The translations under genes and the position numbers were made by a program. From Promethearchaeota archaeon (lineage in GTDB: Archaea > Asgardarchaeota > Thorarchaeia > Thorarchaeales > Thorarchaeaceae): a stretch of 30,808 nt of DNA. Below are positions 5,839 through 11,681 of this stretch, piece after piece; the stretch's first letter is position 1, and each line of letters starts with the position of its first letter. Below the pieces are notes generated by a model, which saw nothing but the letters and a program-made list of their open reading frames with translations, was not told where the DNA came from and searched no databases. The stretch spans positions 30,184 to 60,991 of the forward strand of contig JALVPN010000211.1 of assembly GCA_027031765.1 (NCBI GenBank), written 5' to 3'.

Positions 5839-7446
5839 CTACCGCTCTCTGAGCCTCGGGTTCAGCACCTGGTCCATTGTGTGTCCGACAAACGTGAACG
5901 ACAGGGACAGCAACGTGATCATCATGCCTGGGAACACGACAACCCACCAAGCACCATTGCTGAAGCCCCCTGCGGACTGCGCGTCAGCGAGCATGCGGCC
6001 CCAGCTCGGCTGGCTCGGGTCTGTGAGGCCCAGGAAGGCGAGCCCGGACTCCGAGAGGATTGCGGCGACGACGCCGAGGGTGATGTTCGCGAACAGGATT
6101 GGAGTCACGTTCGGCAGGATGTGCCTGAAGATGATGTAGGTGTCAGAAGCGCCGATGGCACGGGCGGACTCCACATAGGCCTTGTTCTTCTCGGCCATCA
6201 CCTGCGAGCGTATCAGCCGTGACGTGCCGGTCCAGCCCAGGATGGCAATGACCACTATGATGTTCTGTATGGTGGGCCCTAGGAACGCCGCCAGCACCAT
6301 CATCAGTGGTAGGCCGGGTATGACGAGCAGGAAGTCGACTATACGCATCAGGGCCTCGTCAATCTTGCCACCAAAGTACCCTGCCACCAGGCCGACAATG
6401 ACGCCGACAGCTGTGGAGAGTGCAGTGGCAAGTATGCCGATTGTGAGGGAGATGCGCGAGCCGTAGATGAGCTGTGCCCATGCGTCACCACCCTTGTCGG
6501 TAGTGCCGAGGAGGCCATAGTAGGGCCCGTATGCAATCATGCTCACGGTCTCAATCTGCACAGTGACGGAGCCTGTGTAGTTCATCCACGGGTGGAGGTA
6601 GGGGTTCCGTGGACTGCGCCGCTGTCTGAAGAGGTCAGTCGGTGTGAGGCCCATTGCGACAGTGAGTATGTCTTTCGGGTCCTCCTGAGTGCCATTGGCC
6701 TCCATCATGCCCAACCAGCCGGCCTTGATATCGAACCAGCTGAGGTCGATACGGCGGTTCTGGACACCTGGCTGGTATGGTGGCTCGGAGTCGTATATCT
6801 TCTGCCAGTTTCCGGAGGAGTCGATGAGCCAGATACAGAACTTGAACATCCGTCCTCCGAGGGGCTCGTTGTAGAAGTCTCCCGCGAGCGTGACACCGAT
6901 GTCCAGGCTCATGTTGACATCGCTGGGCATTGTGTCATAGTCCCAGTGGATGACCTGAGTGAACATAATGAAGTCGTTGGCATCCGGTTTGTTGGGGTCG
7001 AGTTGTGATGGGTACTTCCACCAGATCTGGTCACCAGCATGGTGCGTCCATGTCAGGTTGACATGCCCATCACCGTATGCATAACTGAAATTGGGAGATG
7101 TGCCGTTGATGTAGACAGTGTTTGGGACTGGATCGTCACCCACCTGCTCCGTGTTGTTGGGGTTCACGTTCAGGTGGGGGTCAGGCATATACTCATTGGT
7201 GACCACACCCTCAGGGTCAAAGACCTGCATCCACGCAGGTGCGAGAAACTGTGGGGCCACCTTGTTCGTGGGGGAGGGGTCTGCAAGTGCGAAGATTGGT
7301 GCACCTATTGCCATCACCACAAACAAGGAGAGCACCGTCAGGCCAATAACCCCAGACCGGTGTTTCCTGTATTCACCCCAGAAACCACTGAGGCCCACGT
7401 ACCAGCTGCTGTCCTTCCAGCTGCCCTTCTCAACATAGTCGGACAT
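5839..7446 (-). CDS. dppC: Peptide ABC transporter permease DppC/OppC with an insertion of about 240 aa
   Basis: LLGTTDKGGDAWAQLIYGSRISL; EAA motif (AYVESARAIGAS); C-terminus ...DQVLNPRLRER. GGAGG RBS before the ATG. Confidence 0.96.
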   Translation of the reverse strand: MSDYVEKGSWKDSSWYVGLSGFWGEYRKHRSGVIGLTVLSLFVVMAIGAPIFALADPSPTNKVAPQFLAPAWMQVFDPEGVVTNEYMPDPHLNVNPNNTEQVGDDPVPNTVYINGTSPNFSYAYGDGHVNLTWTHHAGDQIWWKYPSQLDPNKPDANDFIMFTQVIHWDYDTMPSDVNMSLDIGVTLAGDFYNEPLGGRMFKFCIWLIDSSGNWQKIYDSEPPYQPGVQNRRIDLSWFDIKAGWLGMMEANGTQEDPKDILTVAMGLTPTDLFRQRRSPRNPYLHPWMNYTGSVTVQIETVSMIAYGPYYGLLGTTDKGGDAWAQLIYGSRISLTIGILATALSTAVGVIVGLVAGYFGGKIDEALMRIVDFLLVIPGLPLMMVLAAFLGPTIQNIIVVIAILGWTGTSRLIRSQVMAEKNKAYVESARAIGASDTYIIFRHILPNVTPILFANITLGVVAAILSESGLAFLGLTDPSQPSWGRMLADAQSAGGFSNGAWWVVVFPGMMITLLSLSFTFVGHTMDQVLNPRLRER

Positions 7447-7969: not shown

Positions 7970-8284
7970 TCACTCGTCTGATGGTCGCTCTCCTACTGCA
8001 TCCTCAAAGGGGTCGGTCTCGACACCCTCAGCGGATAGGACAGCACCAACATCCCGTTCGCGGGCGAGCGACCTTGTCCGACGCGACGCGGCCCATAGGT
8101 CAGCCACGACCATCCCGACCAAGAAGACGCTGAGCACCCCTGTGAGGGCAATGATACTCCCGATTAGCCGCAGGGCCGGGTGCAACATAGTAAGGCCCAT
8201 CCCACCAAAGATCAGGACTACTGGGATGAGCAGGAGGCGTTTCTTTGGCTCCTCGCGTGTTGGGGGGAAGGCTCGGACGGTCAT
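7970..8284 (-). CDS. Small membrane protein with two TM helices and an acidic C-terminal tail
   Basis: Two hydrophobic stretches (LLLIPVVLIFGGMGLTML; LIGSIIALTGVLSVFLVGMVV) and plausible composition. Start taken as the ATG at 8284 (ORF track starts at 8311). Confidence 0.65.
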   Translation of the reverse strand: MTVRAFPPTREEPKKRLLLIPVVLIFGGMGLTMLHPALRLIGSIIALTGVLSVFLVGMVVADLWAASRRTRSLARERDVGAVLSAEGVETDPFEDAVGERPSDE

Positions 8285-8432
8285 CAGTATCTCACCCGTC
8301 AGACCATGCAATACCTTTTACGGTTTCCGCCTGCCCGGACTGACTTGCAACGTCACTTGCTGTCGCTTACACTGGCGGCAAAGTCCTCGACGGCAGGGAG
8401 CAACAACATCCGGAGTCGTAATGTGCCCGATA

Positions 8433-8460
8433 GGATGGATGGACGGACGGATGGATGGAT
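8433..8460 (+). repeat. Tetranucleotide microsatellite (GGAY)7
   Basis: GGAT GGAT GGAC GGAC GGAT GGAT GGAT read directly. Confidence 0.85.
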
Positions 8461-8844
8461 GCTCCCAGACGCCTAGTGACATCAGTCCGTCAACTCGTCG
8501 GGATGGGTGTTGATGATGGGGGAGACAGTTGTCCGGAGGAGCAGTCAAGTAATGGTTCACAATGACACCCCCGTTCCGTGCGCTGGGGCTAGACGGGCCG
8601 TTGGCAGGCCCACCACATACAGTAGAAGTGCACAGTACAACGGATCATCGTAGCAACGGAAAGGACAGCAGGTGTTCCCCCATTCCTGAAACCCGTACGA
8701 GAACTCAGAGACCGTTTCTCAAGGACTGATGACTCTCAACTCCGACCCTTGTTGACATGTACAAGGGGTTCCAGGACCCACTCACGAAGTCCGTGTCGTG
8801 AACACGGAACGCCTATCAACAGACCGTTGGAGGACTGAGCAGTG

Positions 8845-8851
8845 AATATAT
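8845..8851 (+). promoter_or_regulatory. TATA-like box (AATATAT) for the radical SAM gene
   Basis: About 24 nt upstream of the GTG at 8875, which fits a leaderless archaeal transcript. Confidence 0.4.
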
Positions 8852-8874: not shown

Positions 8875-9963
8875 GTGACTGTGATAGGTTGTCTTCATGA
8901 CCAGGTCGATGGGTCGATAGAGAGTGTCGCAGCATGTCTGCTAGCCAAGCACCGGGGCAAGGCCATCCCAGTGCTCCATCTCCTCACTCGTGCTCTGAGT
9001 GACTTTTCATCCCGCGACTTGGAACTCGCACTCGGACATCTTGAGATGTCTGGCGACGTGTACATTGAACGCGCACCGCGAGTACAGGAGGACACGGTGG
9101 TCGGGCAGGGCATCCGGTCAACTGATATTGTCTTCTTTGATACGTTCCCGACCATTCTCAGGAAGTCGCTCCTCTACAAGACCGGGGTCGAATATGGAGA
9201 CTTCACAATCAACCATGTGCTTGGTTGTGCGCATGGTTGTAGATATCCCTGCTACGCGATGGTGTTGGCCAAGCGCTATGGCCGTGTGAAAGACTATGAC
9301 GACTGGAAACACCCCCGTATTGTGGGCAACGCGTTGGAACTGCTGGAACGCGAAATCCCCAAGTACCGGAGAAGAATTCGGTCTGTCCACCTCTCGTTCA
9401 CCACAGACCCGTTCATGTACGACGCTGTCAACAAGAGGGTGTTCCCCTGGGTCAAAGACCTGAGCCTCAGAATCATCGCCCGTCTGAACCGCGAGGACAT
9501 CCGGGTGACTACACTTACGAAGGGCCTCTGTCCATTTGAGCTGACTCACGAGGTGTACTCGCGCGACAACGAGTACGGTATCTCCCTAGTTTCACTCGAC
9601 TCATGGTTCCACGGCAAGTATGAACCATTCTCTGCACCGCCGGAGAAACGTGTCCTTGCCCTCAGGCGGCTCCACGACGCAGGGCTCAAGACCTGGGTGA
9701 GCATCGAGCCCTATCCGACACCGAACATTATCGAACAGGACCTCGAGTTTCTGCTTGAGAAGATAGCATTCGTGGACAAAATGATTTTTGGACGTTGGAA
9801 CTACAATGGTCTTGCCGACTCGTATCAAGGTGTCACCGAGTTCTATGTCATGTGTTCAGACATGGTCGTCCAGTTCTGTAGAGAACACGGCATCACCTGT
9901 TATATCAAGAAAAGGACGCCACAGAGCAGCAAGACCACACGCAGCATATTCTCTGTCCAATAG
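8875..9963 (+). CDS. Radical SAM protein (spore-photoproduct-lyase-like / DNA-repair-associated clade) with an N-terminal wHTH-like extension
   Basis: NHVLGCAHGCRYPCYA (Cx3Cx3C variant of the [4Fe-4S] motif), SFTTDPF, LTKG and WVSIEP motifs typical of SPL-like radical SAM proteins. About 90 extra N-terminal residues. Confidence 0.9.
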   Translation: MTVIGCLHDQVDGSIESVAACLLAKHRGKAIPVLHLLTRALSDFSSRDLELALGHLEMSGDVYIERAPRVQEDTVVGQGIRSTDIVFFDTFPTILRKSLLYKTGVEYGDFTINHVLGCAHGCRYPCYAMVLAKRYGRVKDYDDWKHPRIVGNALELLEREIPKYRRRIRSVHLSFTTDPFMYDAVNKRVFPWVKDLSLRIIARLNREDIRVTTLTKGLCPFELTHEVYSRDNEYGISLVSLDSWFHGKYEPFSAPPEKRVLALRRLHDAGLKTWVSIEPYPTPNIIEQDLEFLLEKIAFVDKMIFGRWNYNGLADSYQGVTEFYVMCSDMVVQFCREHGITCYIKKRTPQSSKTTRSIFSVQ

Positions 9964-10592
9964 AGAGTGTTACGGCCCTTCGGAGAGAAGGTCATGTTGA
10001 ATCCGCACGGGTCAACATGAGACCTCCGTTCCAACAATACTGGGTAGGCCCCTCACTCACACTCAGACCTGCTGCCATCAGGTTGAAGACCACTCATCAA
10101 GGACATGAACTACATGAAGGGTTCGGGATTGATAGTGGGGACTGACCAGGGCCTTCTGGTAGCCACCGCGACTGTCCGGACGCACCACCAGCAGAGCAAA
10201 CGATAGGGCGACCGCGAGCAGCCCGACCTAGAGGACGGAGTCCAGCTCCTGAAGAGAGTCGTCCAAATCCCCTAGACGGGTAACAGTGCGTATGGCTGGC
10301 TCCCGTACTGCCACTGGGGTCTCAATACGAAGGGAGCCTCCGCGTGAAACCGTGTCATTGTCAGCCCATGTCCTACCGGACTCGAGAGATGCGTGCCAAT
10401 AGAGCGACTTGGACTCGCCAGACCAGCGAGAGGCATTGTGTGGAGCGTTGGCGCAGCCCGTAGCGTGCGGTAGAGGAAACCGGACACTCGGCTCTGACCG
10501 CCACGCCTGTCTTGGCACGTACGCTTACTGTATCCGATCCGTACTACCGGACTCGCTCTTTCGAGTGGGACAGTTTAACACACAGGCCGCTT

Positions 10593-10611
10593 GCAAAGCA
10601 ACATATTTAAG
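10593..10611 (+). promoter_or_regulatory. BRE/TATA-like promoter for dppDF (GCAAAGcaacaTATTTAAG)
   Basis: An AT-rich box with a purine-rich upstream element in a GC-rich background, about 80 nt before the dppD ATG. Confidence 0.45.
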
Positions 10612-10691
10612 CCCACCAAGTGGCTTCGACTTCTCGGAATAGTTGGCGACTATGCCATGTCCGCACGAGAGCTCCCGCGGAGAAACGAGTC

Positions 10692-11681
10692 ATGCCTTTG
10701 CTGGACATCAGAAACCTCAGGATGTATTACAGTACCCAGAAGGGTCTCGTCAAGGCCGTTGACAATGTGTCACTGACGCTTGAGGCCGGCGAGTCAATCG
10801 GACTGGCTGGCGAGTCAGGTTGTGGGAAGAGCAGCTTGGCCTATTCGATAATGCAGCTCTTGCCCCCAGCAGCAAACATTGTGGGCGGGAACATCTACTT
10901 CAAGGGAGAGGACCTCCTGCAGAAGTCGGCACGGGAGATGCGTGACATCCGCTGGAAGAATGTGGCCATCGTCTTTCAGGGAGCGATGAACGCACTGAAC
11001 CCTGTGTTCGAGATTGGAGAACAGATTGCAGAGGCCATCCTCATGCACGAGAACGTGACAGAGGAGGAGGCCCTTGACAGGTGCGCAAAGCTCTTTGAGA
11101 TGGTAGGCCTCGACCCCGAGCGCATCCACAACTACCCACACGAGTTCTCAGGAGGGATGCGACAGAGGGCGATGATAGCCATGGCCCTCGCGTGTAACCC
11201 AGACCTTGTGATTGCGGACGAGCCCACGACCGCACTCGACGTCACAATCCAAGCGCAGATCCTGAAGCTCATGCAGAGGCTCCAGAGAGACCTGGGCCTG
11301 TCACTGATACTGATCACGCACGACTTGAGCGTCATTGCGGAAACGTGTGACAAGACCGCAATCATGTATGCCGGCCGCATCGCGGAGCTCGCAGACGTTG
11401 TGTCGATATTCAAAGACCCCATCCACCCGTATGCCACCGGGCTGGTCGGGGCAATCCCAAGCATGGTGAAGGCAGAAAAGCGGAAACTGACATCAATCCC
11501 GGGCTCACCCCCAGACCTCATCCAGCCGCCGACCGGGTGCAGGTTCCACCCACGCTGTCCCTACGCAGAGGACATTTGCAAACGCGAGGAGCCACCCTTT
11601 GAGGAGATTGAGCCCGGCAGGTTCGTAGCGTGCCACCTTGCAGAGAGGCTCAAAGGACGACTGACGGTAGACCTAGAGTAG
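10692..11681 (+). CDS. dppD: Peptide ABC transporter ATPase DppD/OppD
   Basis: Walker A GESGCGKS; signature FSGGMRQR; Walker [11 protein letters not shown]; C-terminal oligo_HPY region (HPYA...GCRFHPRC). Start taken as the ATG at 10692. Confidence 0.97.

Follow-up and report, generated by a model that had tools for sequence, protein, structure and literature searches.

A winged-helix radical SAM gene in a Thorarchaeales genome as the probable remnant of an inserted TcmP–radical SAM cassette

A stretch of 30,808 nucleotides from a Promethearchaeota archaeon of the order Thorarchaeales (contig JALVPN010000211.1, positions 30,184 to 60,991; hereafter, the window) carries an intact gene that encodes a protein of 362 amino acids (aa), in which an N-terminal winged helix-turn-helix (wHTH) domain precedes a radical S-adenosylmethionine (SAM) domain resembling, in its fold, the spore photoproduct lyase (SPL). 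This gene is probably the radical SAM half of a mobile two-gene cassette, composed of a three-Cys-motif partner (TcmP) and a radical SAM enzyme, which was inserted into this genome and then lost its partner by deletion. The TcmP–radical SAM pair is already catalogued (TIGR04474, together with related PADLOC candidates), and the locus described here is a partner-less variant of this known cassette, in which the boundary between the genes has shifted. The principal evidence is provided by the empty sites found in related genomes, the relic of a TcmP-like gene upstream from the enzyme, and the association of the two proteins in most other genomes and viruses. The features of the locus, in window coordinates, are as follows.

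7970–8311, minus strand: open reading frame (ORF) of a small membrane protein (113 aa), left border of the inserted segment
8312–10594, no strand assigned: lineage-specific inserted segment of ~2.3 kb, recognized by the empty sites in relatives
8641–8796, plus strand: relic of a TcmP-like gene (53 codons from its 3′ end, no start codon, no usable ORF), recognized by its match to the protein of genome G001
8845–8851, plus strand: AATATAT, an AT-rich heptamer whose centre lies 27 nt before the GTG start, read from the sequence
8875–9963, plus strand: intact gene of the wHTH and SPL-like radical SAM protein (362 aa), from the ORF list, stop codon included
10620–11681, plus strand: oppD, right border of the inserted segment

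The inserted segment and the missing partner

Four related genomes (G015, G011, G009, and G007) retain oppC (minus), the small ORF (minus), oppD (plus), oppF (plus), and the next two genes in the same order, and their OppD and OppF proteins are 83–92% identical to those of the window. In these relatives, the small ORF and oppD are separated by only ~120–370 bp, in comparison with ~2.3 kb in the window, and the DNA homology stops at ~8284, to be resumed at ~10595–10699. Given these empty sites, the radical SAM gene arrived by insertion, and a clean insertion with four empty-site relatives confirms the mobility of the cassette in the Asgard archaea. A homologue is present in only four of the 24 genomes of the same family, and the carrier loci of three genomes (G001, G003, and G004) have no flanking gene in common with the window.

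At the ends of the segment, the search for flanking direct or inverted repeats returned only chance-level matches of 12–22 nt, there are no tRNA genes in the window, and no Rfam match was recovered between 7400 and 10700 at E ≤ 0.1. The genome contains no second copy of the inserted segment. One relative, G006, has two partial wHTH–radical SAM copies at contig ends (L005, G006:C25:2–301, and L006, G006:C65:9331–9642), which cover residues 75–174 of the query with ~65% identity, and may represent a repeated or fragmented element. Within the inserted flank upstream from the relic, there is also a short microsatellite-like run, (GGAT/GGAC)n, at 8433–8461.

The first-pass annotation, which was made from the sequence alone, had already suspected that the gene was acquired, on the basis of its base composition. 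The acquisition is borne out by the empty sites in the relatives rather than by the GC content. The dip itself is real, given that the GC content of the gene is 53.5%, which corresponds to the 2.6th percentile of the 1,273 long ORFs of the genome (mean 59.6 ± 2.9%), but the contrast had been overstated, with a third-position GC (GC3) of 65.5% (21st percentile) and an ordinary divergence in codon usage. As a deviation of approximately two standard deviations, accompanied by ordinary codon usage, it was rejected as a decisive sign of acquisition, and synteny was used instead.

No TcmP was found in the genome of origin (an assembly of 2.95 Mb in 229 contigs, 95% complete, with 59.2% GC), either by TIGR04474, by tblastn with seven fusion cores, or with proteins of the G001 and G003 types, and the hidden Markov model (HMM) of the TcmP core recovered none among all the six-frame ORFs. 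The earlier statement that no TcmP catalytic domain is visible upstream thus holds for the genome as a whole, but it missed a 3′ relic at 8641–8796. This relic matches residues 297–349 of the 350-aa TcmP-like protein of G001 (E = 7.5e-7), to which it is 36% identical across 53 aligned aa. Its score of 35.0 bits compares with a maximum of 22.3 bits in 100 shuffles. The partner encoded at locus L015 matches the same site, more weakly. In both G001 and G003, TcmP lies directly upstream from the orthologous radical SAM gene, and the relic occupies the syntenic position, with its end 78 nt from the radical SAM start, in comparison with 63 nt for the intact gene of G001. A significant match at this position points to a partner that was once present and was later deleted, and, as far as can be read from the sequence, the loss of the TcmP-like partner here is secondary.

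The association of the two genes was assessed with HMMs built for the TcmP core, the wHTH, and the radical SAM domain, which were used to scan 80 GTDB species-representative loci together with the window. TcmP is fused or adjacent to the radical SAM gene in 62 of the 73 informative genome loci, while in the IMG/VR viral contigs, a separate TcmP lies beside the enzyme in 65 of the 70 informative loci. The idea that TcmP often adjoins genes of this type, which the first-pass annotation had put forward, was therefore correct, and the neighbourhood analysis of the homologues that it proposed revealed a pervasive linkage, which sets them apart from routine SPL-like enzymes. Overall, the pair was detected at more than 590 genome loci and on 72 viral contigs, in bacteria, archaea, and viruses. 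TcmP is not found in the fetched flanks of the other 11 informative genome loci, and the wHTH–radical SAM genes among these are two in number, that is, the window and a metagenome-assembled genome of the Thorarchaeota (L012, in G004).

No other gene family is found beside the pair in more than five of the 80 loci, and the slightly recurrent neighbours include N6/N4 DNA methylases, an Eco57I-type methylase, and a ResIII helicase. At four Clostridia loci (L063, L066, L070, and L081), two tandem TcmP paralogues precede the radical SAM gene, which is followed by an N6_N4 DNA methylase of 709 aa and by a ResIII/SNF2 helicase of 954 aa, in an arrangement similar to a Type III restriction-modification (RM) system. 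In G004, the other relative with an orphan (L009, G004:C6, 8199–9589, minus strand), the radical SAM gene is followed by a PadR–HAAS signalling pair, composed of a regulator of the PadR family and a membrane protein with a HAAS domain.

Elsewhere in the window, two tandem OppC-like permease paralogues of an opp-type peptide ABC transporter, which are 72% identical, are encoded at 3–1181 and 5839–7446, both on the minus strand. This duplication is conserved in the genomes of the family, and the OppC-like protein has a large extra-membrane insertion of ~250 aa.

The winged helix and the position of the gene boundary

The 362-codon ORF at 8875–9963 is uninterrupted, and starts with GTG, and its translation contains the peptides quoted in the first-pass annotation. 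An in-frame TAA lies 9 nt (three codons) upstream, which makes an earlier start impossible. After codon 3, further in-frame starts are found at codon 50 (TTG) and codon 57 (ATG), either of which would cut the conserved N-terminal domain. In ~40 clusters of homologues, conservation at the protein level extends through the N-terminal ~95 residues. The AlphaFold2 model of the whole protein has a pLDDT of 93.1 and a pTM of 0.92. The protein and its motif are divided as follows.

8875–9159, plus strand: N-terminal winged helix (aa 1–95), homologue of the C-terminal GMT-wHTH of TcmP, based on hhalign, HMM, and structural matches
9160–9960, plus strand: partial TIM-barrel core of the radical SAM domain (aa 96–362), based on a near-threshold match to PF04055 and on structural matches
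9226–9252, plus strand: cluster motif C118-AHG-C122-RYP-C126 (Cx3Cx3C), based on conservation in the family

The winged helix that had been proposed for the N-terminus is well founded. The AlphaFold2 topology of the domain is H-S-H-H-S-S (pLDDT 82.9 when modelled alone), and the top 50 matches in a VIA-align comparison with 48,161 chains are exclusively winged-helix domains, the best being that of Pyrococcus Rpa2 (Z = 8.7; root-mean-square deviation, rmsd, 2.0, over 63 residues), although Z values of 7–9 are middling. Foldseek found nothing at E ≤ 0.001 for the isolated domain, in a list dominated by wHTH proteins. The proposed check of the fold of residues ~1–92 thus succeeded with VIA-align, and with hhalign in the case of the TcmP C-terminus, but not with Foldseek, and the fold is settled as a wHTH by the uniform fold class of the matches combined with the homology of the sequences.

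This homology links the domain to TcmP, as the first-pass annotation had suggested. In hhalign, a profile of 44 N-domains aligned to a profile of 71 TcmP C-termini with a probability of 97.8% (E = 1.2e-12, 74 columns), and the custom wHTH HMM matched the N-domain of the query with E = 5.5e-16. The GMT-like wHTH model PF22560 also matches TcmP proteins that stand alone, at their C-termini (E = 7e-10 and 1.5e-10), two relatives of the radical SAM protein, at their N-termini (P0056, E = 1e-7; P0039, E = 7e-6), and the fusions, in their middle part (E = 1e-4 and 5e-3). The query itself has no direct match to PF22560 at E ≤ 10, and its homology is shown instead by hhalign.

The search of 5.8 billion proteins recovered thousands of relatives, in three length classes. 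Those of ~275 aa contain the radical SAM domain alone, covering residues ~94–360 of the query, while those of ~350–360 aa, several of which are labelled Candidatus Thorarchaeota, cover 94–99% of the query with 53–63% identity. The relatives of ~630 aa are TcmP–wHTH–radical SAM fusions, with TIGR04474 (NCBIfam) on residues ~11–256 and radical SAM homology from residue ~362, and the first 95 residues of the query align to the segment that lies between the TcmP core and the radical SAM domain. The enzyme half is orthologous to the TcmP-linked and TcmP-fused enzymes, with 47–63% identity over 94–99% of the length, in a supported clade.

In a maximum-likelihood tree of 152 radical SAM domains, the wHTH–radical SAM proteins of the Thorarchaeota type form a single clade (SH-aLRT 96), composed of 40 wHTH–radical SAM entries and four scored as radical SAM only, which is separate from the group that includes the fusions and most of the forms with the radical SAM domain alone. 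Given that these proteins form one supported clade, the architecture is a stable trait of the lineage, rather than a local accident. All members of the family keep the same order of domains (core, wHTH, and radical SAM), and differ only in the position of the boundary between the genes. The break may occur after the wHTH, which is the most common arrangement, or nowhere, as in the fusions of ~630 aa, or before the wHTH. It is this last position that defines the Thorarchaeota clade of the present gene, and places the wHTH on its radical SAM protein. The wHTH is thus a movable connector, which is able to belong to either gene.

The domain fusions of distant relatives offered no functional clue, with the exception of P0303, a metagenomic protein of 651 aa that combines a TcmP core and a GMT-wHTH with a true SPL-family radical SAM domain (PF20903, E = 1e-19). 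This fusion indicates that no fewer than three branches of the SPL/DUF5131 megacluster have TcmP as a partner. The TcmP of G003 has a wHTH of its own, which means that the G003 system contains two copies, one at the C-terminus of TcmP and one at the N-terminus of the radical SAM protein (L010, G003:C51, 8123–9244 and 9361–10437). This double occurrence suggests either the replacement of the partner or a pairing of the two winged helices.

The first-pass annotation had suggested that the protein may be a fusion yielding a DNA-targeted enzyme, and a DNA-targeting wHTH that was added to steer the radical SAM domain to DNA, for its modification or repair, is an unlikely alternative to the loss of a partner. 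The confirmed fold of the wHTH would suit this role, as would the conserved arginines in the wing (YIER-P-R...R), and SPL, the closest structure to the catalytic domain, acts on DNA. The domain is acidic, however, with eight K/R versus 13 D/E residues and a net charge of −5, and its most conserved positions are hydrophobic, together with Glu57, in the signature ALxxLE...Y[IV]ER. In wHTH domains, the third helix is usually the one that recognizes the DNA. Here, a Leu-Glu is conserved in this helix, with no basic residue among its conserved positions, and the best structural neighbours of the domain include winged helices that bind proteins, such as those of Rpa2, cullin (WHB), and ESCRT-II. Given this acidity and the hydrophobic conservation with a single glutamate, DNA binding by the wHTH is possible, but unsupported. 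The same domain is found on TcmP in most systems, which is more consistent with a shared connector than with a new targeting device, and the constant order of the domains argues against the formation of a new fusion. The claim of a new fusion is further undercut by the TcmP type of G001 and L015, the source type of the relic, which has a divergent core and is itself devoid of the wHTH.

The catalytic domain and its cluster motif

The match of the query to the radical SAM model PF04055 is just below the threshold (28.3 bits versus a cut-off of 29.5, over aa 112–295), and close relatives score 30–43 bits. The first-pass annotation had noted that the motif CAHGCRYPC is one residue longer than the canonical Cx3Cx2C, and this reading is upheld by the family. 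The canonical motif is absent, with the three cysteines (C118, C122, and C126) being retained together with one extra residue, the invariant Pro125. Of the 120 best homologues, 117 have the spacing CxH[GD]Cx[YF][PQ]CY, which identifies the extra residue as a character of the family, rather than an error, and C122, P125, C126, and Y127 are invariant in an alignment of 79 sequences. No literature was found on radical SAM sites of the Cx3Cx3C type, and the single mention of this spacing, in NifB, looks like a slip for Cx3Cx2C.

The comparison of structures places the domain closest to SPL, in agreement, at the level of the fold, with the SPL-like enzyme that had been proposed. The spore photoproduct lyase has the top rank in Foldseek (TM-score 0.51–0.54, ~300 columns, 14% identity), and also in VIA-align (Z = 19.0–19.4, rmsd 3.2–4.3, 244–253 residues), where other radical SAM enzymes (viperin, PFL-AE, LipA, NifB, and RlmN) reach Z values of 13–15.6. 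The catalytic domain is nevertheless not a member of the SPL family, and the SPL model PF20903 has no match to the query at E ≤ 1. The NCBIfam models of the PA0069 and Rv2578c radical SAM families (NF033668 and NF038135) score 42.9 and 42.1 bits, respectively, in comparison with cut-offs of 360 and 430, and the match to the NCBIfam “mobile pair” radical SAM model is also far below its cut-off. The DUF5131/phage Gp37–Gp68 model (PF07505) scores 16.9 bits, versus a cut-off of 28.9, over aa 103–181, and a sequence search of the PDB with the profile of the radical SAM family found nothing.

An ordinary orthologue of SPL or of the COG1533 “DNA repair photolyase”, with no link to TcmP, would account for the JGI label “DNA repair photolyase” carried by many homologues, for the top structural match, and for the weak matches to the PA0069 and Rv2578c families. 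Set against this are the low identity to SPL, the scores far below the family cut-offs, the distinct spacing of the cysteines, and the pervasive linkage and fusion to TcmP, which already contradict this explanation and make it highly improbable. A distant second homologue of the SPL/COG1533 type is encoded elsewhere in the same genome (C213:215–835, minus strand), with 25% identity over residues 97–279 of the query and an HMM E-value of 7e-6.

Origin, function, and relation to known systems

The history that would best account for these observations begins with the insertion of a two-gene cassette, a TcmP-like gene followed by a Cx3Cx3C SPL-like radical SAM gene, between the small membrane-protein gene and oppD. 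The TcmP-like gene would then have been deleted, leaving ~53 codons of its 3′ end. In the enzyme, C118, C122, and C126 would hold a [4Fe-4S] cluster, and SAM would be cleaved to a 5′-deoxyadenosyl radical, which, by analogy with the spore photoproduct lyase, may attack a nucleic-acid base. In the complete systems, the wHTH would couple this enzyme to the TcmP core, which appears to be a Rossmann-type protein, probably SAM-binding and similar to RlmJ, and the pair would represent a module for the modification of nucleic acids (DNA or RNA), of the type found in defence systems or mobile elements. The TcmP core has the motifs DxFAGxG, GSP, and IDPFG, and a PDB sequence search with the TcmP protein of G003 returned nothing. 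No functional literature was found on either TcmP or the GMT-wHTH.

A different outcome, in which the enzyme has been domesticated as a stand-alone protein, independent of TcmP in some Thorarchaeota and with a host function such as repairing or modifying bases in DNA or RNA, is possible, although not probable. The ORF is intact, its codon usage is similar to that of the host, and it deviates from the family at only four of 97 highly conserved columns (family median of two), with all four changes being conservative. The heptamer at 8845–8851 resembles a TATA element, and is a possible archaeal TATA box of a leaderless transcript, judging from its sequence and position. The orphan of G004, which belongs to a second genus, is also intact, in a genome with no TcmP, and the 11 informative loci with no TcmP in their fetched flanks point in the same direction. 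Domestication is less consistent with the presence of the partner at ~85–93% of the loci, including those of viruses, and with the patchy distribution of the gene in the family, at a different place in each genome, which is unlike that of a housekeeping function. The relic, in turn, marks the loss of the partner at this locus as secondary. In a more specific form of this proposal, which is doubtful, the wHTH–radical SAM protein of some Asgard archaea (Thorarchaeota) would have become independent of TcmP, and would have been domesticated as a stand-alone nucleic-acid enzyme that uses the Cx3Cx3C site and the invariant proline, with the wHTH providing the contact with the substrate or partner that was once provided by TcmP.

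Several observations weigh against the main reading, or limit it and its proposed mechanism. The intact gene, with its conserved residues and ordinary codon usage, argues for a stand-alone function rather than decay, as does the intact orphan of G004, which lacks a relic (the best upstream match of 22.7 bits is no better than the 22.3-bit maximum of the shuffled flank of the window). The relic of the window is a single match of 53 residues. The main reading accounts neither for the other ~330 bp of the flank upstream nor for the ~630 bp that follow the gene (9964–10594, apparently non-coding), and a comparison of both flanks (8312–8640 and 9964–10594) with the neighbours at homologous loci and with HMMs revealed no relic of any other gene. 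The radical SAM half has only weak matches to the PADLOC models PDC-M41B (17.4 bits over ~76 residues) and PDC-M30B (14.3 bits over ~42 residues). The RlmJ-like fold of TcmP is a lead only, given the comparison of the TcmP profile with the PDB, in which only RlmJ matched, at a non-significant E of ~0.46, and we infer the substrate, the chemistry, and the binding of a cluster at the Cx3Cx3C site alike. The enzyme is intact and looks foldable, and may thus be either a remnant that has not yet decayed or a protein that works alone. The remnant is slightly favoured, given that, at other loci, the enzyme is nearly always accompanied by its partner.

The family as a whole is of more interest than this orphan, and an intact pair or fusion would be a better starting point for experiments on the two family-wide questions, that is, the chemistry of the pair, and whether the Cx3Cx3C site supports radical SAM catalysis. 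The locus itself represents a natural state of partner loss, with a datable relic, which could show whether the enzyme half persists alone, and it also illustrates the shifting of a gene boundary within an otherwise fixed succession of core, wHTH, and radical SAM domain.

Among the known systems, SPL (PDB 4FHC, 4FHF, and related entries) provides the closest solved fold, approximately four Z units above the other radical SAM enzymes. It differs from the present protein in its sequence (14–16% identity), in its Cx3Cx2C motif, and in its membership of PF20903, and the query is further distinguished by its N-terminal wHTH and its archaeal host. The GMT-like wHTH of PF22560 is homologous to the N-domain in the comparison of profiles, and the signature ALxxLE...Y[IV]ER is common to both, although the domain lies here at the N-terminus of the radical SAM protein, rather than at the C-terminus of the TcmP core.

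In the PADLOC systems PDC-M30 and PDC-M41, a TcmP-like A component is combined with a DUF5131-like B component, and the TcmP–radical SAM pair is similarly a self-contained cassette found in variable contexts, often with RM genes. In the relatives, the TcmP partner is recognized by the models PDC-M30A (E = 1e-29) and PDC-M41A (E = 2e-10), whereas the enzyme belongs to a sister radical SAM family that is matched only marginally by the B models, and the A component is absent here. The PDC entries are candidate phage-defence systems, nominated on account of their occurrence inside BREX, DISARM, or Type I RM systems, and the main text that defines them names neither M30 nor M41 (Payne et al., bioRxiv 10.1101/2024.01.29.577857).

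The closest counterparts are the TcmP–radical SAM fusions and pairs themselves. Over their C-terminal half, the fusions share 47–54% identity with the radical SAM domain of the query, and their middle domain aligns with its N-domain. What distinguishes the present case is a locus and genome without a TcmP core, in which a relic of 53 codons is all that remains of the partner, and the placement of the wHTH on the radical SAM protein.

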